Below are positions 12,972-63,583 of a stretch of DNA of 64,000 nucleotides, piece by piece. How positions within the stretch are numbered: position 1 is the first letter of the stretch; each line of letters opens with the position of its first letter. A program made the translations under genes and the position numbers. Origin of the DNA: a virus (taxonomy: Duplodnaviria; Caudoviricetes); the IMG/VR virus record IMGVR_UViG_3300003320_000853; one strand, given 5' to 3'. The notes beneath the pieces are model-generated. The model did not search any database, was not told where the DNA came from, and saw only the letters and a program-made list of their open reading frames with translations.

Positions 12972-13475
12972 ATGATGCACATCGACACGACGATGGAGGT
13001 CGTCACCCTGGAGGCTCTGGAGGTCAATGAAGCCGAGGGTGTGCTGGCCGTCCTTGCAACGGCAGCTACGGCGGATGCCTCCGACGAGGTGTACCGTCGC
13101 GACGAGACTTCCCACGAGGAGCATATCATCTCGTCCGTCGCCGGGGCGAAGGCTCCAGGAGGCGTGGCGCTCCGGGAGCGGCATCTCTACGAGGCAGGGG
13201 AGTATCGCGTGGTTTCGTCGACCCGCGACCGGAAGTTGCGCCGGCAATTCCTCTTCAAGATCGACGAGATGGGTAGGCACTGTGCGAGGATCCAGATCCT
13301 GCCGGGGAGTGCTTCGGCCACGTGGATCATCGGGGACTACGACCCCGTGAGGTTCGATGGGACGCTCATCACCATCCACATCGACAACGGTCGGGTCGCC
13401 TCGATCGAGGCTGGCGAAGGTCATAGCCAGCGGCGCCTCACCGCGTGGGAGCAGCTCGACAACGACGCCCTCTAG
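12972..13475 (+). CDS. Hypothetical protein with C-terminal tag (LTAWEQLDNDAL)
   Basis: AGGAG RBS, tag at the C-terminus. Confidence 0.7.
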   Translation: MMHIDTTMEVVTLEALEVNEAEGVLAVLATAATADASDEVYRRDETSHEEHIISSVAGAKAPGGVALRERHLYEAGEYRVVSSTRDRKLRRQFLFKIDEMGRHCARIQILPGSASATWIIGDYDPVRFDGTLITIHIDNGRVASIEAGEGHSQRRLTAWEQLDNDAL

Positions 13476-13492
13476 GCGGTGTAGTTCTGGGG

Positions 13493-14602
13493 GTGCCGTA
13501 CTGCCCGAATTGCAGGACTGAATCCGTCAACTCAAGGCTGTGCCATCGCTGCATCAGCTCGCTCCGAGGCCAGATCGATGGCGGGCGTGTTTGCTATCGG
13601 TGTGGACTCGCAGAGCGCTCCGTTGGAGGATCTTTCTGTGCCTTCCAGGATCTGGACGGAGAGATTACCTTCGTGGAGCATTCCTTCACCCCTCTCCCGG
13701 ATCTCCCGCGAGATGAGCGCTTCGAGGCACTCGAAAGGGTCGCGGCGAACGTTCGGAGGGACAGGGATCAGGAAGAGCGTTGCATGGGATGCGGGGCGAC
13801 GCGGGAGCGTGCCGCGGAGTACCACTGTTGGGAGAAGAACCACGTGTTCATGGCGGATCTCTTCCGGCCGGCGGAGCCTCCTCCTCCCGAGCCTTACCAG
13901 GAGGAGATCAGCATGGACGAGACGCCGCCCGGTCTTGGGTTGAGCGGCGAGCGCTTCGACCTTCGGTGCGCCGACTGCGGCAAGAACTTCCTCCGGCTCA
14001 AGAAATCCGCCCACGGACACTTCTACGGCTGCACGAGCTGGCCCGAGTGTGCAGGGACGCACGGGGCACATCCGGACGGTCGCCCCAAGGGAATTCCGGG
14101 GGATAAGAAGACCCGGCTCGCCCGCATCGAGGCCCACAACGTCTTCGACCAGCTCTTCAAGGGCCCGAAGAGCCAGATGTCCGTGAGCGAGGCGTACTTC
14201 TGGATGGCCCAGGAGATGAAGCTTTCGGAAGCGGACGCCCACATTGCCCGCTTCACCGTCGAGCAGTGCAACCAGCTCATCCGCCTCGTGAACGTGAAGC
14301 TCGGGCCCACCGGGTGGGACGCCATCCTGGGGGACGAGGATCCGTTCGGCGCATCCGAGGTCGTGGCCGAACAGGAAGGGACAAGACCTCCCGCTCCTCG
14401 GCCGCCGAGCGGGGATCGCTACACGATCACCGAGTTCAGCGATGGGTGTCTGGACGGGAGCTGGACGGACGACGACGGGATCGGATACTTCGGCACCGCG
14501 ACGGCGGAGTTCCACGAGGATCCGGTCTCCTGTGCCGCCTTCGAGGAGGACAACACGTACATCCCCCCGGGATGTACCCACGTCTGGTGGTACAACAAGT
14601 GA
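13493..14602 (+). CDS. Multi-Zn-finger protein with topoisomerase-type Zn ribbon / DUF3268-like domain
   Basis: CxxC repeats, FYGCxxWPEC, GAHPDGRPxG, RLARxxAHxxFD, AYxWMA, AHIARF, internal tag PTGWDAILGDEDPFG, GGTGTA 9 nt upstream. Confidence 0.7.
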   Translation: MPYCPNCRTESVNSRLCHRCISSLRGQIDGGRVCYRCGLAERSVGGSFCAFQDLDGEITFVEHSFTPLPDLPRDERFEALERVAANVRRDRDQEERCMGCGATRERAAEYHCWEKNHVFMADLFRPAEPPPPEPYQEEISMDETPPGLGLSGERFDLRCADCGKNFLRLKKSAHGHFYGCTSWPECAGTHGAHPDGRPKGIPGDKKTRLARIEAHNVFDQLFKGPKSQMSVSEAYFWMAQEMKLSEADAHIARFTVEQCNQLIRLVNVKLGPTGWDAILGDEDPFGASEVVAEQEGTRPPAPRPPSGDRYTITEFSDGCLDGSWTDDDGIGYFGTATAEFHEDPVSCAAFEEDNTYIPPGCTHVWWYNK

Positions 14603-14898
14603 GCCGGCCCGCCCACCGCTACCCGCCCGGCTGGAAGCCGACGCCAACGCTCCCCCACGTGGCGAAGCTCCTCCGGGACATCGCGCCGACGAAGAAGCGG
14701 GACGACATCCGTTGCACGTGCGGTGCCTTCATGAGGCTCATCGACGGGCCGTACAGTCGGTTCTACGGATGCCGCCGGTGGCCCGACTGCAAGGGTCGCG
14801 TCCCCGCGGGATTCGATGGAGCACCCTTCGGCAAGCCCACTCCAAACCCCACGTGGCATGAGCATCTGCTCGCGTCCGATCCATTCGGGGACTCATGA
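14599..14898 (+). CDS. Small Zn-ribbon protein with C-terminal tag (PTWHEHLLASDPFGDS)
   Basis: CTCG...FYGCRRWPDC, GTGA overlap with upstream stop. Confidence 0.7.
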   Translation: MSRPAHRYPPGWKPTPTLPHVAKLLRDIAPTKKRDDIRCTCGAFMRLIDGPYSRFYGCRRWPDCKGRVPAGFDGAPFGKPTPNPTWHEHLLASDPFGDS

Positions 14899-15081
14899 GC
14901 GAGGACGCCGCCCGCGAAGCATTCCTGCGGATGTTGGAGCACGACGAAGAAGAGGGTCGACAGGATCGGACTACCTTCACCCGTGTGCGATTTTCGTGAG
15001 AGGGTTCCGGTGCTCGAACAAGTACCGATGGGCGGGTCGTCTGTATCTCGCCGAGATGTACAAGCGCCGCCAGCGGAAGGT

Positions 15082-15888
15082 CTAGCCGCCCGCCGCCACG
15101 AACGAGCACCCGCCGCCCACCCATGGGGCCCCGCACTGGCAGTGGGGTTCGGAGGTGTACTCGTGGTGCCAAGGAGCCGCTTCGCAGCTCACACAGAAGG
15201 CGTGGGTCGGAGCGGTGGGGTGAACCATGAAGGAGTCCCCGAGGTCGTCAGGAGGGGCCGGTGCGGGCCGAGCGGGCGGGAAGACGCCGGCTTCCCTGGC
15301 GCACCTGTTGTCATCGAGCCAAGGGGCTCCGCAGAGGCAGTACCATGGGGCGCATTCTCCATAATCGGCCCGACGGTGGACGAACGGTTCGCCCCGACGG
15401 TGCCCCGGACGCATGAGCTGTGCGACGGGGGGCGGAGGATCCGGCCGGGCGACAAGTCCGCGGGCGAACTCGATCGTCTGATGCACGACCGCTTCGAGGT
15501 TCCGGTGGCTGATCTCGGCCATGAATCGGTCGTGCTCGGTCGCATCCGGCCGGCGAGATCGAAGCACGGCGGCCTCATACGAGAGATCGGCACTGCCGAG
15601 CCTCTGGAGGAATTGCTCGACGACTCCGAGATGTAGGACGCGCTCCTCGGATTCCAGCCGGCGGACGGCCATCTGCGTCCAGAACTCGACGGCAGCTTCG
15701 TCAGGGGTGTACTCCGGACCGTAGGTCAGGGTTCCGTCCGGATGGATCCGGACGAGGATGCGATCCTTCGAGGTTCCGATGACCAGGTCGCCCGGGTGGG
15801 TGCCGGGCTCGCGGGGTTCGGGTCGAGCTGTACGGCCAGGGGGGTGAAGGTCATCCCAGTATTCCAGGAGATTGTCGTCGGTCGGCAT
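15082..15888 (-). CDS. Hypothetical protein with N-terminal tag and C-terminal CxCGAPW repeats
   Basis: MPTDDNLLEYWDDLHPP, then CLCGAPW / CVSCEAAPW / CQCGAPW. Confidence 0.7.
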   Translation of the reverse strand: MPTDDNLLEYWDDLHPPGRTARPEPREPGTHPGDLVIGTSKDRILVRIHPDGTLTYGPEYTPDEAAVEFWTQMAVRRLESEERVLHLGVVEQFLQRLGSADLSYEAAVLRSRRPDATEHDRFMAEISHRNLEAVVHQTIEFARGLVARPDPPPPVAQLMRPGHRRGEPFVHRRADYGECAPWYCLCGAPWLDDNRCAREAGVFPPARPAPAPPDDLGDSFMVHPTAPTHAFCVSCEAAPWHHEYTSEPHCQCGAPWVGGGCSFVAAGG

Positions 15889-15947: not shown

Positions 15948-16253
15948 GTGATGGACACCTCTTCCAACGATGATCTGGTCTCCTACTGGGACGACCTCCA
16001 GCCGATCTCGTTCGCCCGCGCCTGTTCCTCTGCCCTGGATGCTGCATGGAAACGCGATGCGACCCTCGTTGCCTCGTTCCTCACCGCTGCCGAGCGTCTC
16101 ATGGGGGAGGAGAACCGCGTGGCCCGGGCCCGGTGTGAGTTCGTCACCGTGGGCATCACCACGCGCGTTTTCGAGAAGGTGAGCGCGAACTGCCGGTCCA
16201 TTCTCCAGGGCAAGCCCCCGCCCTTCATATGGCCTCTGGACGGCCAGCTCTAG
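15948..16253 (+). CDS. Hypothetical protein with N-terminal tag (SNDDLVSYWDDL)
   Basis: ORF, tag, CTAG stop overlap with convergent gene. Confidence 0.6.
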   Translation: MMDTSSNDDLVSYWDDLQPISFARACSSALDAAWKRDATLVASFLTAAERLMGEENRVARARCEFVTVGITTRVFEKVSANCRSILQGKPPPFIWPLDGQL

Positions 16254-16801
16254 CTTGTCTTGACCTCTTCCTGCGCCGGCTTCGGTTCGTCGATGTGGTC
16301 GAAGTCGTCGTCCAAGAGACGTTCCTGCCAGGCCCGAGGCTCCGCCGCCGATGGGACGCCCTCGGCCTTCTTTTTGCGTTTCGGCTTGGCCGCCTGGCGC
16401 GCGTCATGATTGTCGTGGCGCGAGAACGGAACCAGCGGGATCGCGACAGGCGACCGAGGATCCGGGGCCAGCCTCTGGACCTCCTGCTGAAGGTCGGCGT
16501 TCTGGCGCGTCAGCTCGCGTGCAAGCTGCTCCAGGGCGGTCTTCTCGGCGGTCAGGAGGGCCAGCGCTTTGATGGTGCGGTCGACCAGGCGGTTGTTCTT
16601 CACCCATCCAAGGAGGAGACCGAGGCCGAAGGCGACCGTGACGGCGTAGAGGATCGGATGGTGCTCCCCTGCCCAATGCCATCCGTCGATCGCCCACCGG
16701 GCGCCCGTAACGTACTGCGTCTTGAACCAAGGGAACTTGGCCGCGACGAAGGCCCCCACGGACAGAAGGAAGGCCCAGGCGAGCCAATCGAACTTGCGCA
16801 T
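16250..16801 (-). CDS. Membrane protein (2 TM plus coiled coil) with tag PRAWQERLLDDDF
   Basis: Hydrophobic segments, heptad region, GGTGTA 9 nt upstream. Confidence 0.7.
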   Translation of the reverse strand: MRKFDWLAWAFLLSVGAFVAAKFPWFKTQYVTGARWAIDGWHWAGEHHPILYAVTVAFGLGLLLGWVKNNRLVDRTIKALALLTAEKTALEQLARELTRQNADLQQEVQRLAPDPRSPVAIPLVPFSRHDNHDARQAAKPKRKKKAEGVPSAAEPRAWQERLLDDDFDHIDEPKPAQEEVKTS

Positions 16802-16852: not shown

Positions 16853-17545
16853 ATGGCGAAGCACACCCTCACGTCCGTGACCCAGCTCCTCGAAGAGGTG
16901 TTCGATCTCGCCTACTTCCATGCGGAGGACGGGGAGGCCGAGCCCGCGATCCCCCACATGTGGGTTCCCGGTTCCTCGAAGCTCGTCGTCGTGGTCGGGG
17001 AGAATGCGTCCGGCAAGAGCTTCCTCCGGCGCATCGTTGCCGGGCTCTCTCGGCGGGCCGAGACCGAGTGCATTCACATCTCGATGGAGGGCCGGGCGGA
17101 CAACGGCATGATGATGATGCCGATCGCCCGGGCCTTGGTCTACGGGGACGAAACCTACAACTCGACCGGGCAGCTCTCGGCGCACACGGTCACCGCGGGC
17201 ATCAATACGTGCCGCGATCGGGAGAAGCCGCACTTCATCTACTGGGACGAGCCCGACTTCGGACTGTCGGATGGATGGGCCGCCGGTCTCGGGGTGAAGG
17301 TCCGCGAGTTCGCCGAGACGATGCCCGAGTTCACGTTGGGCGCCTTCGTGGTGACCCATCGTCGGGCCATGGTGCGCGAGATGGCGCCGGCCAACCCGCA
17401 CTACATCTACCTCGGGTCGATGGCGCCGCCGCCGAGCCTCCAGGCTTGGATCGAGACACCCTCTCCCGTCCGGAGCATCGACGAGCTGGACGAGATCGCC
17501 CACACCCGGTTCAAGAGGATCCAGGCGATCCTCAATCGGAAGTAG
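16853..17545 (+). CDS. Stand-alone ABC-type ATPase
   Basis: Walker A GENASGKS, degenerate signature STGQ, Walker B IYWDEPD, H-loop VVTH. Confidence 0.8.
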   Translation: MAKHTLTSVTQLLEEVFDLAYFHAEDGEAEPAIPHMWVPGSSKLVVVVGENASGKSFLRRIVAGLSRRAETECIHISMEGRADNGMMMMPIARALVYGDETYNSTGQLSAHTVTAGINTCRDREKPHFIYWDEPDFGLSDGWAAGLGVKVREFAETMPEFTLGAFVVTHRRAMVREMAPANPHYIYLGSMAPPPSLQAWIETPSPVRSIDELDEIAHTRFKRIQAILNRK

Positions 17546-18281
17546 CGACGCCAGGAAGCCGGAGGAGCTTGAGCGGGCCATTGTGGCTCGCGAGGGGGGC
17601 GAGCTCCTCGTTCTGGAGGACATCGGAGAGCTTCATGCTCTGCCCATCGACCACGCAGGTTGCCGAGACCAGAACGACGATCTGGCTGTAGTCGACGTGC
17701 TCCTTGTTGTGGCGCCAGCCGCGCCCTTGGATCACCCGGACGAAGCGCCCATCGTCGTCCTTGATGAGCGAGGCGTTCACTTCGCCGACGATCCCCTCGA
17801 AGGCCACACCCTCGAAGTGCCATCCGTAGTTCTCGACGAACCCCGGATGGTCGAGGATGTCGTTGTCGAGAACCCAGTGCTTGCCGACTGTCGAGATCAG
17901 GCCCTTCGCTCCGCCGAGCTTGTTGAGCGCACCATCGATCCGCTCGCTGTGGGCGACCATGGCCGCCGTCGTGTCCGAGATCGTCTGCGGGGATGGAACC
18001 AGGGTCGTCTCACGTTGCGACCAGATGAGGTCGGCGATCTTCGGCGTGAGGAGCATGCAGTCGAGGAGGTCGGCGATCTTCTGTTCTGTGTCCGCGCAGG
18101 CGTTGATGCGAACGCCGTCCATCTTGAGCGCATCCGAGAACACTTCGAAGGTCGCCGTGTGTCCCTCGTGTTGGGAGGTCACGGGGCTCCACGAGATGTC
18201 GTCGTAGTTCCCCTGACGGACACGGTCGAGGATCGCACTTTCGCGATCCGGGCCTGCAACAGTGGGAAGGTCGATGCTCAT
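17532..18281 (-). CDS. Conserved-looking hypothetical protein
   Basis: Globular ORF with LLTPKIADLIW, GKHWVL, NYGWH, HVDYSQ motifs. Confidence 0.7.
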   Translation of the reverse strand: MSIDLPTVAGPDRESAILDRVRQGNYDDISWSPVTSQHEGHTATFEVFSDALKMDGVRINACADTEQKIADLLDCMLLTPKIADLIWSQRETTLVPSPQTISDTTAAMVAHSERIDGALNKLGGAKGLISTVGKHWVLDNDILDHPGFVENYGWHFEGVAFEGIVGEVNASLIKDDDGRFVRVIQGRGWRHNKEHVDYSQIVVLVSATCVVDGQSMKLSDVLQNEELAPLASHNGPLKLLRLPGVATSD

Positions 18282-18328: not shown

Positions 18329-18931
18329 ATGAGCATGGTTGGTCTCCGAGTTCCGGAAGAGGCTGCTCGGATTTTGTGGGCGTTTTTCGAGTCGAAATAC
18401 GACTGGCCGGATACAGTCCCGATGGAGGACGCGCATGTGACGCTCCTCCACCTCGGAGACTCTCTCCCAAAAGACATGAGCGATCGGGCCGCCGAGGCGC
18501 TCCTGCGAGCCACCGCCGACGTCCGACCCTTCACCGTTTCGACAAGCCGCGTCCGAACGTTCGGGAGCGCCGGAGAGGATGGGACGCCGATCGTCTGCCA
18601 GATCGACTCCGAACCGCTCCACGCGCTCCGACAACGTCTCGCGGAAGCCTTCGATGCGGCAGGGGTGCCCTACTCGAAAAAGTACCCCGAGTACAAGCCG
18701 CACGTCACGCTGGCCTACAGCCCGGATCCCCTCGTGGACGAGTTGTTCGGGAGCTACTCGGGCTTCTCTCCCGTTGAGTGGGGCGTCCACGAGGTGATCT
18801 TGTGGGGTGGGGACAAGGGTCTTGGGGAACCCTCGGAGAGCTTCCCCCTCTCGGTCGTCCCTCGGACGGCTCAGTTCCGGCTCGCGGTCAAGAGGGCGTT
18901 GGGGATGTCGACTCAGCCCGCCCACAGGTGA
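18329..18931 (+). CDS. 2H phosphoesterase (LigT/ThpR/Acb1-like)
   Basis: Two HxT motifs: DAHVTLLHLG and YKPHVTLAY. Confidence 0.88.
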   Translation: MSMVGLRVPEEAARILWAFFESKYDWPDTVPMEDAHVTLLHLGDSLPKDMSDRAAEALLRATADVRPFTVSTSRVRTFGSAGEDGTPIVCQIDSEPLHALRQRLAEAFDAAGVPYSKKYPEYKPHVTLAYSPDPLVDELFGSYSGFSPVEWGVHEVILWGGDKGLGEPSESFPLSVVPRTAQFRLAVKRALGMSTQPAHR

Positions 18932-18971
18932 CGACCGGGGCAGGAGTTTTGATAGCCTTCCTGTAGGTATC

Positions 18972-19976
18972 ATGCCCCAGTTCGTCGAACAGTGCCCCGC
19001 CTGCAACAACCCGATCTACCTGGAGGACAATGTCCAGGGGTCGTGCGAATGCCTGGAGGGTGGTCTCCGCCAGCTCCTCGCCCGCAAGCAGCGGGCTCGG
19101 GGTGGCGTCCAGTATGTCGGCCGTGACACCCGTCCCACGATGGCGCGGGTTGCGAGCCAGGCGACACAGAGACCGCAACTTCAAGCCCGCCAACTGCCCG
19201 AGCTCTCTCCCGAGATGTTCCTCTCGAACGGGGCGCTCAGGGAGGTTCAGGCAGCCTCCCAGGTGCTGGGCCCGAGGCCGCCCGCGCCGGTCGATCCTCG
19301 ACGTGTCACGTCCGAGCAATGGGCGACGGGCAGGCACTCGGGCGAGGGGTTCGACCTCGACCTCAGCATGGACAGCGCGATCGAGCAGGCGATGAACGAG
19401 CGTGCTCAGGAGACAGCAGAGCTGGCGTCGTCGATCGCGAATCTGTGGCGGGGCTCCGTGGCCCGCGACATCGGAGAAGACGCGGCGTCGATCGAGTTCA
19501 CCACCAACGAAGACATCTCGTTCGAGCCGCCGGATCTTCCAGTCCGGGCACCTCTTCCCGACCCTCGCAACCCGCGCTTCCGAGTCGATCGTCCGCCTCC
19601 GGGGCCCCCTCCGTTCCGGCGCGAGACCATGAACGCCGACGGGTACGACGTCATCCCGTACGAGGAGACTCCCCGTCCCATGCGTGAGATCGGGCAGGTT
19701 CGTGGTGCGAGGATCCTGACTGACCGGGGCGCTCGCCCCGCTCCGCCCATGAGAGAGGCGGTGACCAACCTGAACGGAGACACATCCAGTCTCCAGGCCA
19801 TCCGGGATCGCGCTCGCACCCACTACTACCCGGAAGGGGTGCAAGCGCCTATCCGCATTCCGGCCAAGGACGCCAACGGCAGGACGGCAGAACAGCGGAT
19901 GGCGGAGCACATGCGGCGGCCCACGGCCTACGAACACCTCGTCCGGTCGGATCCCTTCGAAGACGTCGACTTCTAG
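18972..19976 (+). CDS. Largely disordered Pro/Arg-rich protein with N-terminal Zn knuckle and C-terminal tag (RPTAYEHLVRSDPFEDVDF)
   Basis: CPAC...CEC at N-terminus, tag at C-terminus. Confidence 0.7.
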   Translation: MPQFVEQCPACNNPIYLEDNVQGSCECLEGGLRQLLARKQRARGGVQYVGRDTRPTMARVASQATQRPQLQARQLPELSPEMFLSNGALREVQAASQVLGPRPPAPVDPRRVTSEQWATGRHSGEGFDLDLSMDSAIEQAMNERAQETAELASSIANLWRGSVARDIGEDAASIEFTTNEDISFEPPDLPVRAPLPDPRNPRFRVDRPPPGPPPFRRETMNADGYDVIPYEETPRPMREIGQVRGARILTDRGARPAPPMREAVTNLNGDTSSLQAIRDRARTHYYPEGVQAPIRIPAKDANGRTAEQRMAEHMRRPTAYEHLVRSDPFEDVDF

Positions 19977-20020: not shown

Positions 20021-20473
20021 ATGAGCGAGCAGACTTTCGGGTTCGAGAACATGTCGGAGCGCGAGTTCCGATCGGTCTTCAAGTTGAACATGCTGGCCCA
20101 ATTCGTGGTCGAGAACAGCACGCGAAAGGGATTCCGAGACAAGTTGATGGAGGGCCTCACCGATGCCCAACGGATCGGGCCCCTCGGGCGTCTCCTCAAG
20201 GCCGCCGTGATGACGATCAACGAGGTCGGCGAGCTGATGGAGTTCTGGGAGTCGTTCCGCGCCGGGACGCTCGATCAGCCGTGCGACAAGGCCGCGAAGA
20301 TGGAGGCGCTCGGTCTCCCCGTGCTCACGAACGCCGAGGAGGAGATCGCGGACACGATTATCCGTGCCCTCGACCGAGCCGAGGCACACGGCGTGGACGT
20401 CTGCCGCGCCGTGTGGGCGAAGATGCGCCTCAATTCGTCCCGACCCCATCTTCATGGGGGAAAGGCCGCCTAG
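20021..20473 (+). CDS. MazG-like NTP pyrophosphohydrolase
   Basis: ExxE...EExAD metal motif (EVGELME, EEEIADTIIR) and KMxxNxxRPxxHGGK tail, GGTGTA 11 nt upstream. Confidence 0.82.
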   Translation: MSEQTFGFENMSEREFRSVFKLNMLAQFVVENSTRKGFRDKLMEGLTDAQRIGPLGRLLKAAVMTINEVGELMEFWESFRAGTLDQPCDKAAKMEALGLPVLTNAEEEIADTIIRALDRAEAHGVDVCRAVWAKMRLNSSRPHLHGGKAA

Positions 20474-20690: not shown

Positions 20691-21209
20691 ATGCCCAGGC
20701 TCGACAAGCGGCTCCTCACCGAGGTCGCCGAGACCATCCTCGAAGGACGTTCCGCGCTCTTCCTGACCCCTTCAACGCTCGGGGAAACGACCGTCCGCCA
20801 GGAGGTTGCCGATCGCGTGGCCGATCGCTTCCGCAAGGCGTTCATCGAGGCGGCACAGATGCACCGCAACTGCGCCGAGGTGACGGCCAGGAAGCTCCTC
20901 CGGCCGGAGATGAACAACCCTTCCTTCGTGAAGATGGCCGGGCGGGAGACGGGTTGGGTGTTCTTCCACCCGAACGAGGATGTCGTCCATGCGGACGAGG
21001 ATTTCGCGGCGCCGAACTACGTCTACTGGCCCACCGAGGGCGCCGACTACCAGAAGTTCTCGTACCTCTCGTGGCGTCGTGAGCGCCGGTTGAACGTCTG
21101 GCGTCCCGTCCATCTGGAGGGCGCCCTGGCTTGGGAGGATCCCCCTGGTGAGGTCGCCGCCCGTGGGCCGAAGGACGCATGGGCGGCGCTCCTGGAGGAT
21201 GTCTTCTAG
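20691..21209 (+). CDS. Hypothetical protein with C-terminal tag (PKDAWAALLEDVF)
   Basis: GGTGTA 10 nt upstream, tag. Confidence 0.75.
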   Translation: MPRLDKRLLTEVAETILEGRSALFLTPSTLGETTVRQEVADRVADRFRKAFIEAAQMHRNCAEVTARKLLRPEMNNPSFVKMAGRETGWVFFHPNEDVVHADEDFAAPNYVYWPTEGADYQKFSYLSWRRERRLNVWRPVHLEGALAWEDPPGEVAARGPKDAWAALLEDVF

Positions 21210-22342: not shown

Positions 22343-22552
22343 TCAGAGGTCGTCATCTTCGAGAAGATGCTGCCAGGCGGTCGCCGGACGATCTCGATGC
22401 CAAGTCGGTTGTACGTGCGGTTGGCATGCGAAAAAAGTCCGTGGTGGCTCGTTGCTTCGACGCTGCAACCCACAATCCGCACAGAGAAAATACTCTGTCT
22501 TCGTCCCTTGGTCGTAGACGACCCGCCATTGCTCCCAGCGGTGGGGCTTCAT
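22343..22552 (-). CDS. Small Zn-binding protein with C-terminal tag (PATAWQHLLEDDL)
   Basis: HxW..CADCG..C, ATGA overlap with upstream gene. Confidence 0.65.
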   Translation of the reverse strand: MKPHRWEQWRVVYDQGTKTEYFLCADCGLQRRSNEPPRTFFACQPHVQPTWHRDRPATAWQHLLEDDDL

Positions 22553-23076
22553 CCAAACGGATCTTCGTCGAGGATGACGTCGTGCCAGGTCGGGATGTTC
22601 GGAGGCCGGGTGAGCGGCTCGTAGCCCACGAGAAGGTGCGGGATCGAGATGCTGATCGTCTCCTTGGACTCGACGTGCGTGAGGACAACGAGCGGTGCTG
22701 CGTCCGACCCCTTCACGGCCGTGACCTTGTAGACCGCCGCGTGATGCTTGCGGCGGGCCCACTCGCCGACCTTGAAGCCGTTCGAAAGCACAGGCGGAGG
22801 CGGCCGATGAAGCTCGGCCAGAGGAGAACCCATCGGCCGGGCCGGCGGGTTCGTGGCGGGGTAGCGCAGGTTCAGACCTCGAAGTTCGTGCCGCTCCGGC
22901 TGGTAGTGCCCGAGCCGGAACTCGACGGCCACCTCGATGATGTGCGGGTTGTCCTCGGCCGTCTGCCAGGAGACGTTCTGCACATGAGGGTCCGCTTCCA
23001 GATCGATGAAGATGCGCCGAACCTGGAAGAGATCCGATGCCGGAAAGGCGAGGTTCCACACGAGAGTCTCGGGCAT
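22549..23076 (-). CDS. Hypothetical protein with C-terminal tag (PTWHDVILDEDPFG)
   Basis: GGTGTA 10 nt before ATG 23076. Confidence 0.75.
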   Translation of the reverse strand: MPETLVWNLAFPASDLFQVRRIFIDLEADPHVQNVSWQTAEDNPHIIEVAVEFRLGHYQPERHELRGLNLRYPATNPPARPMGSPLAELHRPPPPVLSNGFKVGEWARRKHHAAVYKVTAVKGSDAAPLVVLTHVESKETISISIPHLLVGYEPLTRPPNIPTWHDVILDEDPFG

Positions 23077-23102: not shown

Positions 23103-23483
23103 CTAGAGCACGTCCTCGTCCAACCTCTGCCAGGACGTCGGACGGCCTTCGGCTTCGAGTTGGCTGGCCTTGGTCTCCAGCTTGTGGCGGACTGCCGCCA
23201 CATCGGCGGTCAACTTGTCGATGGCCGTCGTGACGAGGGCGTTCAGATTCTCCTGTTGGGCACGGATCAGCTCATGCTGTTGCTGCATGGTGTGGAGCGC
23301 CGCCTCGCGCTCCCGAATGAGCCGGGAGAGCGTGTCGTACGGGTTGCGATCCTCGGGACTCTGATGAGGGACGATCTGTTCGAGAAGGCGGCCGTACGGC
23401 GTCCTCAAGACGTCAGGTCCGATGATCCAAAGGAAGATCGTGTCGAAGATCCAGAGGGAGATCCTAGATCGGATCCTTTGCAT
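23103..23483 (-). CDS. Coiled-coil protein with C-terminal tag (RPTSWQRLDEDVL)
   Basis: Start uncertain (23483 or upstream), heptad repeats, tag. Confidence 0.6.
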   Translation of the reverse strand: MQRIRSRISLWIFDTIFLWIIGPDVLRTPYGRLLEQIVPHQSPEDRNPYDTLSRLIREREAALHTMQQQHELIRAQQENLNALVTTAIDKLTADVAAVRHKLETKASQLEAEGRPTSWQRLDEDVL

Positions 23484-23745
23484 CCGGTACAGGAGCCATC
23501 GGCTGAATTCCTTCTGTCGGAGAGCTCTCCGAAGGGTTCTCCCAGGCATGGTCATTCCTCGCGTAGGGATCGTGTCGCCGCGACCCAGGTTCAGGGCAGG
23601 GACCGTTCTGGCACTCGGGGCGCTCGCACACGGTGCCGAGCGCCGGGTTGTTCTCGGAGTGAATCGCGCAGCAATACTCGCGCTTGTCTTCGGCCCCACA
23701 GTCGAGGCACCATGCCCCGGGCCATCCGCTCCATCGGTGCGTCAT
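23464..23745 (-). CDS. Small Cys-rich protein
   Basis: HRWSGWPGAWCLDCG..CC..C..C..C, ATGA overlap. Confidence 0.55.
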   Translation of the reverse strand: MTHRWSGWPGAWCLDCGAEDKREYCCAIHSENNPALGTVCERPECQNGPCPEPGSRRHDPYARNDHAWENPSESSPTEGIQPMAPVPDAKDPI

Positions 23746-24131
23746 CCGAAGGGTTCCTCTCTGAGAAGAGGGGACACGACAACATCATCGGGCACGACTC
23801 TCTTCCCAGCATCTGCCGGAACGACCCCGATGTTCCATGCGGAATCGTGTGGGCTTTCCCCTACCACGATCGAGAGCAGGGTCGCGTTCAGAGTCTTGAA
23901 AGCAGCCATGATGTCGTCGACGACCACGGAGGCCGCCCGCTTTTCCCCCACGGGCTCCACAGCCTTTTCAAGCTTGAGCGCAATGATGGAGCAGAGGGAG
24001 TTGTCCCAGTGCGTCGTCTTGTTGTCACAGGATAGGGTTGAGACGACATACCCTTGATGGATGAGCTGCGTGATGAGTCCCGGCTCGCTGGCTGGCGTAG
24101 GCACCGTGACCCACAGATAGAAGGTCTTCAT
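23742..24131 (-). CDS. Hypothetical protein, paralog of 24128-24511, ends SPLLREEPFG
   Basis: Shared L(I/L)xxGYxVS, LEK/VEK, SI(V/I)V and C-terminus. Confidence 0.65.
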   Translation of the reverse strand: MKTFYLWVTVPTPASEPGLITQLIHQGYVVSTLSCDNKTTHWDNSLCSIIALKLEKAVEPVGEKRAASVVVDDIMAAFKTLNATLLSIVVGESPHDSAWNIGVVPADAGKRVVPDDVVVSPLLREEPFG

Positions 24132-24511
24132 CCGAACGGTTCCTCGGTGAGGATGGGCGAAATCGGATCCGCTGGCAGGGACTCGATGTTGGTGTTCTCC
24201 CAGATGGTGTGTTCCCCAACCTGGACGATGATCGAGTGCCACCGGGCGCGCATATCCTTGAGAGCGCGGATCACGTCCGCGAGAACGACGTCACGCTCGT
24301 CAGGCTCTTCCTCTTCGATCCCGTCGTAGTCTTCGTCATCGAACTCCTTCTCGACGTCGAAAACGGCCAATGCCGATGCGGGGCCGGAGGATACGATCGT
24401 GTTGCTGGTTGGAGAGACAGCGTACCCACGGCGAAGGAGCCTGGACAGGAGGCCGTCGACATAGGCATCCGTGACGAGGGTTGCATAGACGGTGGCGGAG
24501 GTCTTGGCCAT
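24128..24511 (-). CDS. Hypothetical protein, paralog of 23742-24131, ends SPILTEEPFG
   Basis: CGTGTA variant 9 nt upstream. Confidence 0.7.
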   Translation of the reverse strand: MAKTSATVYATLVTDAYVDGLLSRLLRRGYAVSPTSNTIVSSGPASALAVFDVEKEFDDEDYDGIEEEEPDERDVVLADVIRALKDMRARWHSIIVQVGEHTIWENTNIESLPADPISPILTEEPFG

Positions 24512-28042: not shown

Positions 28043-28270
28043 GTGAGCGCCTTCGAGGTCATCGGCCACCGGACATCCGAGACTTGCCCCTACTGCAAGA
28101 GGCCGACGTTCTGTGACGACTGTGGCATCTGCGCGGACTGCGGATTCAGTGCTCCCTTCGTGCTGCCCCAGCCCGATCCGCCGGCTCCCCGAAACGCTTG
28201 CCCGGAGTGCGAGGGCACGATGCTCCACAGTCGCACATGCTCCGTGACGGCCCGCTCCCTCGCGAACTAG
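28043..28270 (+). CDS. Small Cys-rich Zn-finger protein
   Basis: CPYC, CDDC, CADC, CPEC..H..C. Confidence 0.6.
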   Translation: MSAFEVIGHRTSETCPYCKRPTFCDDCGICADCGFSAPFVLPQPDPPAPRNACPECEGTMLHSRTCSVTARSLAN

Positions 28271-29037
28271 CGTCCCCTGCCCCTGCGGAGCAACTCGGCC
28301 TTCTCCTTGGCATAGCTCCTCCCCCGCTTTGCCGTCTCCCGCCGCTGATCCCGCTGCCCTGAGTCTCCAGGCAGGAGGAGGGTCGGCTTGACCGGCTCTG
28401 GCTTCGGTGCTGGGGGCGGGAGATCGGGCTCATCCCCGAAGACGTCGCGAAGCAGATGATCGTATGATGTAGGATAGCGCTCCCGGCGGCGAGCTTTCGA
28501 GCGGAGCTTTCCCTCCAGCTTCTCGACGGCCTTGGGGTGCGTGTAGGGCTCGATCGTGTAGGGGAACCACGCACTCGTCACCTGACGACACGCGGGGCAC
28601 GTGGTGACCCCTGGTCCCACGGGGAAACGATCGGTCCGAATTCCACACACGTATCTCCGGCACAGGGTAACGACGTCGGCCGTGGGAGCCATGTACCGCC
28701 AGTCGTTGATCCTCAACCATGAGATGGTATGGGTCTCCCCGTCCAAGGTCGCGACGCACGGCGTGATGTCCGCGATGTTCCGCTCAACAAGGACGTGAGC
28801 ACCTACGGGAAAGTGTTCGAGCCTTGTTGCGGTGACGAACCGCAGCACCATCGAACTGTAGGTCTCCACCTCGACCATGTACGGGCCCTTCTTCCCCACC
28901 GACCCGACCCGGACTGCCTGGAGAATTGGCGAGGGATCGCGATCAAGCGGCAGTGCAAGCACATCCGCCCGGGCTTCCTCAAATTGCTCCGTTCCGAGCC
29001 AGCGGAGGGGGATCTTGAAGCGCCGGGGGTTCTTCAT
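28267..29037 (-). CDS. Hypothetical protein with CxxC motifs and internal tag (PTSYDHLLRDVFG)
   Basis: Start at ATG 29037, 13 nt from GGTGTA. Confidence 0.65.
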   Translation of the reverse strand: MKNPRRFKIPLRWLGTEQFEEARADVLALPLDRDPSPILQAVRVGSVGKKGPYMVEVETYSSMVLRFVTATRLEHFPVGAHVLVERNIADITPCVATLDGETHTISWLRINDWRYMAPTADVVTLCRRYVCGIRTDRFPVGPGVTTCPACRQVTSAWFPYTIEPYTHPKAVEKLEGKLRSKARRRERYPTSYDHLLRDVFGDEPDLPPPAPKPEPVKPTLLLPGDSGQRDQRRETAKRGRSYAKEKAELLRRGRGR

Positions 29038-29076: not shown

Positions 29077-29598
29077 ATGGCTCCCGCCGATGAACCTGAC
29101 CCGCTGGATGTCGACCTCTGCGACATGATCGAGCGGGAGGTGAGCCGGGAGAAGGCGGAGTGGGCCCGGAGGTTGCTCCGCGTTCGGCCGACCCCGGGCC
29201 TCGTTCTGACGCCGGGTCTATGGCTTCGGGGCCCCAAGGATCCTCCGAACAGGATCCGCATCGAGGTTGTGGCCGTCGGGAGAACGCTGTGCCGGGTCTT
29301 GAGGATGGGCGACGACGAGGAGGTGAACATGGATACCTCGACGCTTCTCCGGTTCCGTGAGACCATCGTCCCGAAGAGCGTGCCGCCATCATGGTTGCAT
29401 CCTGGGGTTCACGTCATCGACCATTGCTCGGCGACGCGGTTCACGGACCGCTGGATCGTTCGCACCGTCAAGGAAAGCTTTTTTACGGCACGCCACCATA
29501 TTTCCGGGGTTGCCACCTCATGGGACACGGAAGACGATTACTACCGGGTCGCGCCGTTGCGTACCGCATGGGAGCGCCTCGACGACGACATGGTGTAG
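29077..29598 (+). CDS. Hypothetical protein with C-terminal tag (RTAWERLDDDMV)
   Basis: GGTGTA 9 nt upstream, tag. Confidence 0.7.
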   Translation: MAPADEPDPLDVDLCDMIEREVSREKAEWARRLLRVRPTPGLVLTPGLWLRGPKDPPNRIRIEVVAVGRTLCRVLRMGDDEEVNMDTSTLLRFRETIVPKSVPPSWLHPGVHVIDHCSATRFTDRWIVRTVKESFFTARHHISGVATSWDTEDDYYRVAPLRTAWERLDDDMV

Positions 29599-30445: not shown

Positions 30446-30955
30446 CTACTCGTCGTCGGCCAGGAGATGCTCCCAGGCGTTCTGGGGCTTGCCCACCACG
30501 GCCTTCGTGAGCCGTAGAAGCGGGAAGTCCTCCTTGAGGCGCGGGCCCGTGTCGAGATCCCGCACCCCCACCGAGCAGAGATCCACCATTGTATCGTTCG
30601 AGATGTCCCGGACCGTCACCAGCCAGAGTTCTTTGCGCCTCTGGATGAAGATCGCGGCCCTCCAGAGGAAGAGCTGGCCGGTGACCGCATCTTTGGCCCC
30701 CGTCGCAACCTCGAAGGGTTCGGCGCTGAGATCGACTTTGGGTCTCTCCCACCGGAAGTGCGTCGTCGAATGGTATACCCCGCCCACATCGGTGATGGGC
30801 GTAGAATCCCACCGGATCTGGCCGGCGTTCGCGGCCTCGTAGGCCCGCAAGGCATCGTAGACGTCGATCCTGGTCTCGTGGCACGTGACGTCGCCCCGCT
30901 TGAGAGAAGCTCCCGGGCTGAGGAACTGCGTCCTCTCCTTGGGCGGGTCGAGCAT
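30446..30955 (-). CDS. Hypothetical protein with C-terminal tag (PQNAWEHLLADDE)
   Basis: Start assigned to MLDPPKE (uncertain), tag. Confidence 0.6.
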   Translation of the reverse strand: MLDPPKERTQFLSPGASLKRGDVTCHETRIDVYDALRAYEAANAGQIRWDSTPITDVGGVYHSTTHFRWERPKVDLSAEPFEVATGAKDAVTGQLFLWRAAIFIQRRKELWLVTVRDISNDTMVDLCSVGVRDLDTGPRLKEDFPLLRLTKAVVGKPQNAWEHLLADDE

Positions 30956-45537: not shown

Positions 45538-45878
45538 GTTGCTGGATACCCGAGGGCAACACGTTCGGCCGGGTCGAGTTTGCAGAGCGCGAGCCGTCGG
45601 ATCTCGTCGATGTTGGTGACCCGGGGAAGGATAACAATCGGATCCCCGAGCGTTATGACGTTCCCTGAGCGACCATCCTCGGTCAGGATCTTGATCTCGC
45701 GGACGAATCCAGCCTTGCCGGCCGGTCCCGGTTGTGCCGCGAGGTCACGCGCAACCCGTTCGTCCTCGCACGCGCAGACGAGCTGCGTGTTGTCCTTGTC
45801 CCGGTACGTGAAGACGGCGAACGCGTCGAGGAGACGGTAGAGCGTTGGTGCCGGAGGGAGAATTGTCTCGTTGCTCAT
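45534..45878 (-). CDS. Hypothetical protein
   Basis: GGTGTA 10 nt upstream, ALxKLxxxERxALG tail. Confidence 0.7.
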   Translation of the reverse strand: MSNETILPPAPTLYRLLDAFAVFTYRDKDNTQLVCACEDERVARDLAAQPGPAGKAGFVREIKILTEDGRSGNVITLGDPIVILPRVTNIDEIRRLALCKLDPAERVALGYPAT

Positions 45879-45888
45879 GTTCTACCCA

Positions 45889-45914
45889 TACACCCCCGGG
45901 TCCCCATTGGTGTA
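45889..45914. promoter_or_regulatory. Divergent GGTGTA promoter pair
   Basis: TACACC 45889-45894 and GGTGTA 45909-45914, each 10 nt from an ATG. Confidence 0.75.
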
Positions 45915-45924
45915 TGAAAGACGG

Positions 45925-46656
45925 ATGGACAACTCATTCAATTTGGGGTACGACGCGGGGTTGAGTCGCGAGACGGTCTACCTGCGTAGGGTCTACGCTT
46001 GGTTGACGGTCGGCCTCGGCATCACCCTCGCCACATCGTGGGCATCTCTGACGCAGTTCGGCACCCGGGAAGTGAGCCTCAAGGGCTCGATCCTCCACGT
46101 GCCGAACCTCGTGGCCGACATGATGGAGCACCCGATCCTGTCGGCCGTGCTCTTCTTCGCGCTCGGGCTCGGCTCGCGGTTCCTGAGCCAGGCGCGGGGG
46201 GCAGGCGGTCTCTTCCTCCTCTTCTCCGCCTTCAACGGGGTCTTCCTCGGTCCGGCGCTTTTCGTGGCACAGTACAAGGCGAGCGCTGGGGCCACGCTCT
46301 CACCAAACCCGATCCTCCACGCGCTCATCCTGACGATCTGCGCCATGGTCGGGCTCACGACCTACGTGCTCACCACGAGGAGGGACTTCACCGCGTTGGG
46401 GGGTTTCCTGAGCAGTGGCCTGCTCGTCCTCATTGGCGCGAGTGTCCTCGGAATCTGGATCCACGCCGAGTCGTTCCACCTGGCGGTCGCGAGCGTGGGC
46501 GTGCTGGTCTTCATGGGGTTCATCCTGTTCGACACCTCGCGCATGCTCCACAAGTCGAGCTACGACGACGCGATCGGAGACGCGTGGGAGCTGTACATGG
46601 ACTTCGTGAACCTCTTCCTGGAGTTGCTGCGCATCCTCGCGTCCAAGAAGGACTAG
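45925..46656 (+). CDS. Bax inhibitor-1/YccA family membrane protein
   Basis: YLRRVYxWL, TRRDF, FMGFILFDT, LYMDFVNLFxxLLRIL, 7 TM helices. Confidence 0.92.
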   Translation: MDNSFNLGYDAGLSRETVYLRRVYAWLTVGLGITLATSWASLTQFGTREVSLKGSILHVPNLVADMMEHPILSAVLFFALGLGSRFLSQARGAGGLFLLFSAFNGVFLGPALFVAQYKASAGATLSPNPILHALILTICAMVGLTTYVLTTRRDFTALGGFLSSGLLVLIGASVLGIWIHAESFHLAVASVGVLVFMGFILFDTSRMLHKSSYDDAIGDAWELYMDFVNLFLELLRILASKKD

Positions 46657-47296: not shown

Positions 47297-47875
47297 ATGT
47301 CATACAGAGCAATCAGAACTGTCACACGCGGCCTCCTGCGCGAAGTTGAAGGTGAATACAAGGATCGCATCCTTGTCGATGAGCACCCTTGGGGTGCGGA
47401 GGACATGTTCACTGTTTCGGTCCTCAAGGAGGGTCAGGTCGCCGCCGCGCTCATCCTCCGTGCTGTTCTGTTCTCTGCGGAGGAAGCCGCAGGGCTCGAC
47501 ATCGAATCTATCAACATGTCAAGCCTGGCCCGTCGGATCCTTCGCCGCTTTGGCGCTGCAACGACGCAGGGGGCATTCGTGGGCATCCAGGAGTCCGAAG
47601 TCAGCCGCTTCCTCTTCGAGAGGCTGGGGTCCCATCTGGGTCCCACAGCGACCGAGAGGGCTCGCCAACGGGAAGCGTCGGATCTCGTGGCTCGGACGCG
47701 GGCGACCCGGCCGAGGGTAATACCCCAGGTGATCCCGGCGGAGAGCGGATTCGATCTCGTACTGCATGGGCTCACCGCGAACGACGTGCTGAGGGCCGTC
47801 GAAGCGCTGCCCGAGGCGAAGCCGCCCAGCTCGTCGCGAACGGCATACGAGCATCTCCTCGCCGACGAGCTGTAA
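47297..47875 (+). CDS. Hypothetical protein with C-terminal tag (SRTAYEHLLADEL)
   Basis: GGTGTA 47278-47283, tag. Confidence 0.7.
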   Translation: MSYRAIRTVTRGLLREVEGEYKDRILVDEHPWGAEDMFTVSVLKEGQVAAALILRAVLFSAEEAAGLDIESINMSSLARRILRRFGAATTQGAFVGIQESEVSRFLFERLGSHLGPTATERARQREASDLVARTRATRPRVIPQVIPAESGFDLVLHGLTANDVLRAVEALPEAKPPSSSRTAYEHLLADEL

Positions 47876-61986: not shown

Positions 61987-62610
61987 ATGCTCAAAGAGCT
62001 TCAAGACAAGATCATCGCTGCCTGCCCGAACGTCGTCTTCTCCCTGCCCCAATGGTGGGGGTTCGAGTGCGGGAACGGCTGGTTCGATCTGGTCCACGAT
62101 CTCTTCGCGGAGCTGAACGACCTCCCCTACATCGGCGATGTTCGATTCACCTGTGTGAAGACGAAGTTCGCCGAGTTGCGGGTCTACTTCTACTTCACCG
62201 AGGGATCCCGCTGTGAAGGGGTGTCCGAGCTCATCCAGAAGGCGACGGATCGGGCACGGAATACATGCGAGGCGTGCGGCAAGCCAGGCTGTGCCGTGGT
62301 GGACAGTCGCGGCTGGCTTCGGGTGACGTGCCTGATCCATCGCAAGCCCGACGATCGCAATCGCTATGAGGGCGACATGGGGGTCTCCACCCTGTGGTTC
62401 GGTCCATCGTGGGGAGCACCGATCTGTCTTCCGGCCAACGAGTGCGAGACCCCGAACCGTCCCTGCTACCTGTGCAGCAAGGAGTTCGTGTCGGAGGATC
62501 GGGGTCTCGTGATGCCCTTCCACGGGGGACCTGGAGATCCCGCATCGCTCCCTGCCCATTTGGAGTGTCTGAGCGTCGCGCTCGGCTTTCCAATCCCCAA
62601 GACGGTGTAA
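61987..62610 (+). CDS. Conserved phage protein (GWxxL..KxKFxxLRxY..CExCG..GW..C..H) with extra C-terminal Zn finger
   Basis: Motif pattern as listed. Confidence 0.7.
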   Translation: MLKELQDKIIAACPNVVFSLPQWWGFECGNGWFDLVHDLFAELNDLPYIGDVRFTCVKTKFAELRVYFYFTEGSRCEGVSELIQKATDRARNTCEACGKPGCAVVDSRGWLRVTCLIHRKPDDRNRYEGDMGVSTLWFGPSWGAPICLPANECETPNRPCYLCSKEFVSEDRGLVMPFHGGPGDPASLPAHLECLSVALGFPIPKTV

Positions 62611-62619
62611 AGATAGGGC

Positions 62620-63214
62620 ATGCGCTACAGCCCGTATCTGACCCGTTCTGCCGCAGAAAGAATCGACGCCAAGATCGGTCTCCATCCGGACTTCCCCAAG
62701 CCCGGGATCCTGTTCCGCGACGTCTCCCCGCTCCTCGCCGACCCGGATGCGTTCGCGGCGACGATCGCGACCATGTGCGCGCCCTACCCGACGAACAGGG
62801 GACGCACCCACGGCTTCCCCTTCAATCCGCTCGGCGAGTGCCCGACATACATCGCGGGCATCGAGTCGCGGGGGTTCATCTTCGGTGCGGCCATGGCGTC
62901 GACCCTCGGCGCGAGCTTCGTCCCGATCCGGAAGAAGGGCGCCAAGCTCCCCGGCGTCCTCCACGAGGAGAGCTACGCCCTGGAGTATGGCGAGGCAACG
63001 CTCGTCCTCCAGGAAGGGGCGATTCCTCCCCATGCGAAGGTCGTCATCGTCGAACGACCTCATCGCCACTGGGGGCTCGGCGGGGGCTGCCTCCAAGCTC
63101 GTTCGCCGTCAGGGGGCCCAGGTGCTCGGCTTCTCCTTCGTGATCGAGCTGGCGGGCCTCAAGGGTGCGGACAAGCTCGACGCCCTGACCCACTCCGTGC
63201 TTCTCTTCGACTGA
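62620..63214 (+). CDS. apt: Adenine phosphoribosyltransferase with a 1-nt insertion at about 63053 (assembly error or pseudogene)
   Basis: DFPKPGILFRDVSPLL, GIESRGF, IRKKG.KLPG, YALEYG. GTCGAACGAC minus one A restores the PRPP motif VDDLIATGGS and continues FVIELxxLxG. Confidence 0.88.
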
Positions 63215-63217
63215 CCT

Positions 63218-63583
63218 GTGGCGAAGACCTTCAACTCCCGGCGCGAGGTGCTCCGGTACGCGAAGAAGCACCCCGAGAAAGTCGAGGGTATGCTTCGCGC
63301 TGCGGTCAAGAGGGCCTTCTGGTTCGACGCGGCCGTAGATCGGTTCCTCAATTCGACTCCGGAGACTCAACAACGATTTCTGGGCGAGTATGCCCGGGCC
63401 GAGTACAGGATCATCACAGAGAGCCAGATCGACATGATCCACTGGTGGCTCGCAGCCCAAGCGGCGGCGCCCACCGTGGCCGCGAACCGTGCGCGGAGGG
63501 CTCAGGAAAAGGCCCTTGATGAACATTCGAGAATGCCCACAGCCTGGGCGCATCTACTCCGGAGAGACCCGTGGAGCTCTTGA
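63218..63583 (+). CDS. Hypothetical protein with C-terminal tag (PTAWAHLLRRDPWSS)
   Basis: Tag. Confidence 0.65.
   Translation: MAKTFNSRREVLRYAKKHPEKVEGMLRAAVKRAFWFDAAVDRFLNSTPETQQRFLGEYARAEYRIITESQIDMIHWWLAAQAAAPTVAANRARRAQEKALDEHSRMPTAWAHLLRRDPWSS

Follow-up and report, generated by a model that had tools for sequence, protein, structure and literature searches.

We describe here a short peptide, hereafter termed the tag, which is shared by approx. 20 otherwise unrelated small proteins encoded on a 64000-nt stretch of DNA (the window) and by dozens more in its closest relatives. The window is part of a 376986-bp contig from an uncultured phage of ~377 kb (IMG/VR record IMGVR_UViG_3300003320_000853). 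The consensus of the tag is [PR]-[T/S/N/D]-[A/S/L/W]-W(Y/H)-[E/D/Q]-x-[L/I/V]-[L/D]-x-[D/E]-[D/E]-hydrophobic, after which 0–10 further residues follow. The observation itself is real and robust, and as to its meaning we lean, with modest confidence, towards the tag being a tethered docking helix that is read by one lineage-specific partner in the cytoplasm.

Shadow ORFs (open reading frames) are plentiful in the window because of its G+C content of 64%. Genes were called by codon-position G+C (genuine genes having a GC1 of ~0.6–0.7, a GC2 of ~0.45 and a GC3 of ~0.8), and the start codons of all tagged ORFs were re-examined, several ORFs of the first listing being shortened as a result. A preliminary description of the window had listed 15 C-terminal copies of the tag, two half-tags and five internal, near-terminal or N-terminal copies, and each of these was recovered in the frame assigned to it. 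In coding frames the window thus holds 15 full C-terminal tags, two half-tags, one near-terminal, two internal and two N-terminal copies, the tag being C-terminal in 17 of the 22 carriers. A loose regular expression gave 25 matches in the six-frame translation of the window, of which 16 lay no more than 18 residues from a stop codon, compared with 5.1–5.5 matches, 1.3–1.6 of them near a stop codon (maximum 6), in mono- and triplet-shuffled DNA. Among the GC3-validated genes there were 11 C-terminal matches, as against 0.084 in 500 residue shuffles (maximum 2), and an iterated eight-column PSSM (position-specific scoring matrix) matched the window 16 times at ≤10 residues from a stop codon, where 0.28 would be expected from the internal match rate. 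These data clearly show the terminal enrichment over shuffled controls that had been proposed.

The tag is conserved as a peptide. Over the eight core codons of 18 copies, pairwise identity was 0.66, 0.64 and 0.38 at codon positions 1, 2 and 3 respectively, and P, T, A and L are each written with three or four synonymous codons. This synonymous variation indicates selection on the peptide, as had been suggested from fewer codons, and with third codon positions free a DNA-level repeat or a mobile cassette is ruled out as the nature of the tag. An artefact of shadow ORFs was also ruled out, as the carriers have orthologues and satisfy the coding criterion GC1>GC2<GC3. That the carriers are otherwise dissimilar was borne out by an all-against-all BLASTP comparison of their bodies, which returned three weak pairs only (two adjacent paralogue pairs and one match in the tag region). 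The only Pfam matches in the window carriers are zinc ribbons/DUF3268 and a kinase-like domain, and in the related genomes just one or two of 42 carriers have any domain. The window carriers are soluble, except for one membrane-anchored protein (16250-16801), and their pI (isoelectric point) values range from 4.2 to 10.9.

The second position of the consensus, the cap, is only ever T, S, N or D, with E or D three residues further on. As this combination constitutes a capping box, we read the conserved Thr as a helix N-cap and not as a phospho-site; recognition as phospho-Thr by an FHA domain was rejected, given that S, N and D freely replace Thr, as they do in an N-cap. The W and the two L residues would lie on one face of the helix, making the tag a putative N-capped amphipathic acidic helix of ~10 residues. 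This agrees with the helix suggested in the preliminary description, as does an AlphaFold2 model, of low overall confidence, for the protein at 20691-21209, in which a compact body is followed by ~20 unstructured residues (pLDDT ~30) and then by the tag as a separate helix. The 15 residues upstream of the tag are enriched in Pro and Lys and are not conserved, and an alignment of the tagged tails revealed no similarity upstream of the tag. From the eight-residue core to the stop codon there are between 0 and 10 residues, of which the last vary and include G, S, E and D. Phe is the final residue in only three window tags, and further residues follow P-F in two tags whose motif ends in that pair. 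No protease-type cleavage motif was seen beside the tag. The existence of conserved N-terminal (kinase) and internal copies argues against any need for a stop codon or a free carboxylate.

Two contigs in IMG/VR are syntenic with the window, G004 (275 kb) and G003 (128 kb), and a third, G002 (529 kb), is a remoter relative. Genes for baseplate wedge and hub proteins and for a DnaB-like helicase identify the latter as a contractile-tailed huge phage. A 736-aa protein is shared with more remote relatives, namely G001 (392 kb), G006 (380 kb), G007 and G008. The numbers of terminal PSSM matches, with those expected from the internal match rate in brackets, were 16 (0.28) in the window, 18 (1.8) in G002, 17 (0.85) in G003 and 24 (1.4) in G004, but only 1 (0.78) in G001. 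An independent HMM (hidden Markov model) built from the window tails found 13 copies in G004, 14 in G003 and five in G002, and none in G001, G007, G008 or the published uncultured huge-phage genomes LR745208.1 and LR756511.1, with one marginal match in G006. An unbiased search for enriched gapped words in the last 16 residues of proteins gave W.RL as the top word in G002 (nine observed against 0.52) and T.W..L in G004 (seven against 0.10). The tag is thus a trait of one subclade of contractile-tailed huge phages comprising the window genome, G002, G003 and G004. The exact core pattern was met 47 times in bacterial and archaeal genomes totalling 596 Gb, which is approximately the chance expectation, and none of these occurrences was tag-like. 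The tag region alone retrieved only the window's own protein from 5.8 billion proteins, in a search whose word index needs several shared words. No member of the subclade was found among 185579 species genomes, and matches to cultured relatives were remote, being to Xanthomonas and Vibrio jumbo phages. As a separate observation, the tag-less G001 has an enriched C-terminal word of its own, P-Y-x-P, seen five times in called genes against 0.05 expected; ten of its 33 occurrences lie within 14 residues of a stop codon (e.g. at 88050, 142818, 253077, 357122 and 383820), and it may be a different terminal tag.

Each genome of the subclade words its tags in its own way. An ending of an acidic residue, P and F, W or V is found in 7/16 window tags compared with 1/56 in the relatives (P=5×10⁻⁵), orthologous pairs included, and no tag of G003 or G004 ends in P-F, whereas a Leu at core position 3 marks G002 (7/16 tags compared with 2/56; P=2×10⁻⁴). 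The acidic-Pro-Phe ending, which the preliminary description had taken as part of the motif, is therefore a dialect of the window genome and lies outside the core. Within a genome, unrelated genes shift their tags in step, which is the pattern that a single reader, drifting along with its lineage, would impose on tags that must all fit it.

The tag is kept in orthologues from G003, G004 and G002 at 30–56% identity. Over 21 orthologue pairs, identity was 50% for the tag, 40% for the 20-residue linker and 34% for the body. All nine homologues of the 20691-21209 protein retrieved from a large protein database, which are 54–79% identical and come from several independent sources, carry the tag at their C-termini; W and a single acidic position never change there, whereas the linker varies. 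A homologue without the tag, a point raised earlier, was met outside the subclade, where the DUF3268 protein of G001 lacks it.

The C-terminal copies on the plus strand are as follows. The tag of a 167-aa protein with a start supported by a ribosome-binding site (12972-13475) lies at 13437-13472 and is kept in the G003 and G004 orthologues (37–39% identity). A zinc-ribbon protein of ~99 aa (14599-14898) has a W-shifted T-W-H variant at 14848-14895, and an acidic-hydrophobic tail is retained in its G003 orthologue. In a protein of 334–389 aa (18807-19976; tag at 19920-19973) Y replaces W, and the core is kept in the G002, G003 and G004 orthologues. The 172-aa protein modelled above (20691-21209) has its tag at 21171-21206, and that of a 173-aa protein (29077-29598) is found at 29560-29595 and in the G003 and G004 orthologues. 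The former also holds, at residue 42 and thus internally, the single R-V-x-x-R-[FY] motif of the window. Further copies end proteins of 92 aa (31131-31409; tag at 31362-31406), 192 aa (47297-47875; a Y variant at 47837-47872) and 97–121 aa (63218-63583; tag at 63536-63580, ending D-P-W-S-S).

On the minus strand, a 69-aa protein (22343-22552; tag at 22346-22384) is encoded by a gene whose start overlaps the stop codon of the upstream tagged gene (ATGA). The latter encodes 175 aa (22549-23076) and ends in a T-W-H variant (22552-22593), kept as T-W-H/Q in the G002 and G003 orthologues. Next to these lie a coiled-coil-like protein of 150–198 aa (23103-23699; tag at 23106-23141) and two weakly paralogous half-tagged proteins, of 129 aa (23742-24131; L-L-x-E-E-P-F-G end only, 23745-23768) and 127 aa (24128-24511; I-L-x-E-E-P-F-G end only, 24131-24154). 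A 215-aa protein (30446-31093) has N as the cap residue of its tag (30449-30484), and its orthologues have 8–9 of 12 tag residues in common. The tag of a protein of 151–250 aa (32208-32960; tag at 32211-32249) is the nearest to the consensus of all C-terminal tags and has 9/12 residues in common with the G003 orthologue. The remaining copies on this strand end proteins of 127 aa (39675-40058; tag at 39678-39716, its core kept in G004) and 100 aa (45232-45534; T-W-H variant at 45235-45273).

The copies that are not strictly terminal are carried by five proteins. The membrane-anchored protein (183 aa; 16250-16801, minus strand), the sole tagged protein with predicted transmembrane segments, has a tag-like copy at 16301-16336 with its C-terminus 16 residues further on. 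A DUF3268/zinc-ribbon protein (369 aa; 13493-14602, plus strand) has an internal tag (14306-14350) just past the domain and then 83 more residues, whereas its G003 and G004 orthologues stop three residues past the tag; either this tail was gained recently, by extension or fusion at the C-terminus, or it stems from a sequencing frameshift. A 256-aa protein (28267-29037, minus strand) carries an internal S-Y variant (28435-28473) followed by a Pro-rich stretch, and a 218-aa protein (43476-44132, minus strand), the start codon of which overlaps the stop codon of the upstream gene, carries an S-Y variant at residues 3–15 (44088-44126). In these two proteins, tag and Pro-rich stretch are 47% identical over 40 aa, and the segment seems to have travelled as a small cassette. 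Finally, a Ser/Thr-kinase-like protein (299 aa; 3844-4743, plus strand), whose match to Pfam Pkinase is under the family cut-off, has a weak tag at residues 20–31 (3901-3936), which is conserved in the G003 and G004 orthologues and is closer to the consensus there. A PSSM match at 59300 was rejected as a chance hit in an off-frame shadow ORF within a real gene.

Tagged genes cluster in accessory regions and are rare in or absent from structural blocks (none at 220-280 kb of G002, and 2/23 at 0-140 kb of G004); the capsid gene of the window genome is located beyond the window. The element GGTGTA stands 8–12 nt upstream of the start codons of many window genes, tagged and untagged alike, mostly without a Shine–Dalgarno sequence. 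There are 56 copies in the window, spread over 828-62604, of which 38 are start-proximal (examples are at 20675, 23092, 29056/29062, 31108/31114 and 54201/54207), and they are often arranged as divergent palindromic pairs (TACACC...GGTGTA) between back-to-back genes. Start-proximal copies numbered 172 in G002, 82 in G004, 47 in G003 and 38 in the window, compared with 16 in G001. GGTGTA is a trait of the same subclade as the tag, and seems to be a clade-specific promoter of mRNAs with a very short leader or none. It is used by metabolic genes too, and is depleted in the structural blocks. Its presence on tagged genes, together with this depletion, therefore points to the tagged genes as an individually promoted, non-structural class, which speaks mildly against a role in packaging.

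The residues after the tag are partly dictated by the signals of the next gene, a Val before the stop codon arising from GGTGTAG, a Gly from GGATGA start–stop overlaps and an Ile likewise from an ATGA overlap. Such sites lie at 29592-29598, 31403-31409, 45232-45238, 22549-22552, 24128-24131 and 39675-39678, and the final Val of the 29077-29598 protein and its stop codon are made by the GGTGTAG element of the following gene. The overlaps partly explain why TAG is used more often in the window than any other stop codon. Tagged genes do not differ from untagged ones in their use of stop codons.

Elsewhere in the window there is a cluster of auxiliary genes (1-12000 and 35669-46656), for NAMPT-like (5-802), adenylosuccinate synthetase (2121-3728), GH25 lysozyme (8066-8776), lytic-transglycosylase-like (10779-11480), MazG-like pyrophosphatase (20021-20473), cupin (31419-31985), ADP-ribosylglycohydrolase (38704-39678) and Bax-inhibitor-1 membrane (45871-46656) proteins. 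From the GH25 and lytic-transglycosylase-like genes we infer a host with peptidoglycan. In addition, a 310-aa protein without a Pfam family is 95% identical between G002 (343027-343959) and G004 (at ~45664), where typical orthologues are 40–65% identical, which reflects either extreme constraint or recent exchange.

On our preferred reading, the tag would be a portable short linear docking motif, consisting of a cap (T/S/N/D), a W, an L/I and an L three and four residues further on, and an acidic run, in many cases closed by a hydrophobic residue. A flexible, fast-evolving tether would hold this helix at the end of many unrelated small accessory proteins, all of which would offer it to the same groove on one shared reader in the infected cell, and each variable body would in this way be brought to one common place or machine. 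The reader would be lineage-specific, because the wording of the tag shifts in step across unrelated genes of a genome; the likeliest candidate is a phage-encoded protein, the alternative being a host surface that evolves fast. We infer the single reader, the binding of the helix in a groove, and recruitment or tethering in the cytoplasm rather than packaging. It is possible, although we consider it somewhat doubtful, that the tag amounts to genome-wide addressing, in which as many as one in five or one in four of a region's accessory proteins would be routed to a single phage-built structure or machine by a private code that co-evolves in each lineage. Such a system might lead to the procapsid, to a machine for import or unfolding, or to a scaffold associated with a cytoskeleton or factory.

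Several points weigh against a docking helix with a single reader. The tag is conserved only modestly above its linker (50% compared with 40%), and as G003 and G004 are close relatives, the comparison of dialects amounts to approximately three independent lineages. The single reader is itself deduced from the shared sequence and the dialects: these argue for one co-evolving partner, as the preliminary description had supposed in proposing one common receptor, and no such receptor was found among the candidate families and neighbouring genes tested in the window and G001–G004. Differential genomics leaves 121 subclade-specific genes, and fails to narrow them down because the tag-less relatives are too distant (29 of 542 G002 genes have a homologue in G001). 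This set includes an actin-like protein of the Volactin family, a sigma factor, an NAD ligase, SNF2 helicases, a topoisomerase IB and Dam methylases. The actin-like protein (Pfam Volactin, E ~10⁻⁷⁶; ~70% identical between genomes) is encoded at 362464-363474 in G002, 63802-64818 in G004 and 237530-238546 in G006, as well as in LR745208.1 and LR756511.1. It is an attractive candidate, since short C-terminal helices are docked by actin folds, and in G004 the gene immediately after it encodes a small tagged zinc-ribbon protein, as parR follows parM. However, it does not track the tag, being present also in the tag-less G006, and the G004 arrangement is seen in neither G002 nor G006. Sigma factors, which are present in all of the genomes, do not track the tag either.

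The sliding-clamp families PF02916 and PF00712 gave no matches in G001–G004, in a search in which PF02916 was also silent in all control genomes. The only Clp-family gene in the relatives is a ClpP-like gene in G002, which is probably a prohead protease. The two AAA proteins of the window do not co-occur with the tag across the relatives: that of 762 aa is encoded by the tag-less G001 but not by G002, which is complete and bears tags, and no relative was found to have that of 423 aa. Among conserved untagged neighbours, four were considered and none was convincing. The 10779-11480 protein is the lytic-transglycosylase-like one, that at 16853-17545 is an orphan 230-aa P-loop NTPase without a Pfam family (Walker A G-E-N-A-S-G-K-S, Walker B W-D-E-P-D) conserved in G002 and G003, and that at 17532-18281 is a widespread phage protein to which no function is assigned. 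The fourth, at 15082-15888, is the best-conserved unknown of the tag-rich block (70% identity with G003); its 145-aa N-domain has a weak but repeatable match (E ~0.1) to the OB (oligonucleotide/oligosaccharide-binding) domain of proteasomal AAA-ATPase subunits and is followed by a disordered Pro-rich tail, and its AlphaFold2 model is poor (pLDDT 52). One complex prediction that combined tag tails with the actin-like protein, two 15082-15888 N-domains and the 11582-12061 protein scored 0.01, which speaks neither for nor against any of them.

Terminal docking peptides are of a known kind, and the tag meets the generic description of a short linear motif, being a short conserved peptide in a variable disordered context, carried by non-homologous proteins and kept in orthologues. 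The motif, its scale and its dialects appear undescribed, since full-text literature searches found no published account of such a tag, in line with the preliminary description, which knew of no motif with this consensus. The tag resembles the known families that could be compared in its architecture and departs from each in its defining features. Encapsulin cargo peptides, whose shells have the HK97 fold in common with phage capsids, are also short C-terminal peptides on flexible linkers that bring unrelated proteins to one partner. However, they are rich in Gly, Ser and Leu and are not acidic W-x-x-L-L helices, and encapsulin cargo genes adjoin the shell gene, whereas the structural blocks of G002 and G004 have few tags or none. 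The T4 gp43, gp33 and gp55 tails that bind gp45, and the acidic tails of T7 gp2.5 and gp4, similarly bring several proteins to one phage hub, but their carriers are a handful of replication and transcription proteins, whereas the tag, a distinct N-capped W helix, is borne by dozens of ORFans, the window carriers and the 42 in the relatives being almost all domain-less. The tip of SSB (an acidic run leading to I-P-F) is like approximately half of the window tags in placing acidic residues and P-F on a disordered tail. The analogy drawn with it in the preliminary description did not hold, however, as the SSB tip needs its terminal Phe carboxylate and has no W helix, whereas the tag is conserved in that helix, has Phe last in three window tags only, with residues following P-F in others, and is carried by proteins that are not OB-folds.

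The T4 capsid-targeting sequence is an N-terminal leader removed by the prohead protease, in contrast with a tag that is C-terminal in 17/22 carriers and has no cleavage motif. Adaptors of the SspB type are built like the tagged proteins, with a body that varies, a flexible tether and a terminal docking peptide that stays constant, but the SspB XB peptide is basic and hydrophobic and ssrA ends in L-A-A, unlike an acidic W-x-x-L-L helix. PDZ-type ligands depend on a free hydrophobic C-terminus, whereas the last residues of tagged proteins include G, S, E and D and some conserved copies are N-terminal or internal. The C-terminal pentapeptide of chemoreceptors (N-W-E-T-F type), which tethers CheR and CheB, may resemble the tag, its core being W-[ED]-x-hydrophobic and its tether long and flexible; it is confined to the extreme C-terminus of chemoreceptors, whereas the tag is longer, helical, provided with an acidic run and found on unrelated proteins. 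Short C-terminal helices also dock on to actin folds, namely that of ParR into ParM and the FtsZ peptide on FtsA, and the likeness of the G004 zinc-ribbon and actin-like pair to ParR and ParM is only a lead, the arrangement not being conserved.

Of the fates listed in the preliminary description (virion loading, import, proteolysis or recruitment to a host hub), none is singled out by these results, and virion loading is mildly disfavoured by gene position and promoter class. On that account the helix would dock its carriers inside the procapsid, on scaffold, portal or HK97-fold shell, and they would be packaged and injected with the DNA as early effectors. The architecture common to the tag and encapsulin cargo peptides would fit, as would the plausibility of small fast-evolving ORFans, a zinc-ribbon protein and a kinase as injected effectors, and huge phiKZ-like capsids are roomy enough for many internal proteins. 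We nevertheless regard it as unlikely, as tagged genes are nearly absent from structural blocks, their recognizable start element is GGTGTA, which is depleted there, no protease-type cleavage motif accompanies a sequence that is unlike known cargo peptides, and the carriers are very many. Improbable too, in our judgement, is a degron or protease tether, whereby an AAA+ unfoldase or protease of host or phage would read the helix, either for scheduled removal of the carriers or, as with SspB, for delivery of targets bound to their bodies. The carriers do look early or accessory, and degrons and adaptor tethering motifs (ssrA and the SspB XB peptide) typically sit at a terminus, on a flexible linker; against this, the tag is unlike known bacterial degrons, acidic tails are unusual for ClpX, ClpA and FtsH tags, neither window AAA protein co-occurs with it, the G002 ClpP-like gene is the only Clp-family gene in the relatives, and there are conserved N-terminal and internal copies.

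A helix with no common reader at all, acting in cis or by self-association (in solubility, autoinhibition or oligomerization) and spread by recombination or from an ancient C-terminal exon, would account for the cassette-like mobility of the two non-terminal copies that share a Pro-rich extension (47% over 40 aa) and for the adjacent paralogue pairs. It strikes us as very unlikely, because bodies of unrelated fold and very different charge make a common role in cis improbable, identity at the DNA level is low, and dialects that move in step are hard to explain without a shared partner. Least credible, and largely refuted, is that the tag acts in translation, where the ribosome would read it as a signal for termination or for arrest of the nascent peptide, or that it acts as nucleic acid, in the form of an mRNA or DNA element at the ends of genes. 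Tags do sit close to stop codons, and acidic-Pro contexts, with which some tag tails end, slow termination; yet the distance from core to stop codon ranges over 0–10 residues with variable last residues, N-terminal and internal copies are conserved, carrying a tag makes no difference to stop-codon usage, third codon positions are unconstrained, and the trailing residues are explained by overlap with downstream start signals.

Most genes of huge phages are ORFans that cannot be annotated, and a shared tag under selection offers a handle on them that is independent of homology. The tag defines a functional class of proteins and predicts one central partner, which should be retrievable with a 12-residue peptide, and as a portable label it could direct reporters or cargo to the site where the carriers act. 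If the reader is phage-encoded, it would represent an undescribed layer of spatial or temporal organization in phage infection, whereas if it is a host hub, dozens of effectors would be hijacking one host surface en masse. In either case the dialects provide a natural system for studying the co-evolution of a motif with its reader, and if the tag is truly an addressing system, it would be the counterpart, in viruses of prokaryotes, to the sorting signals of eukaryotes.

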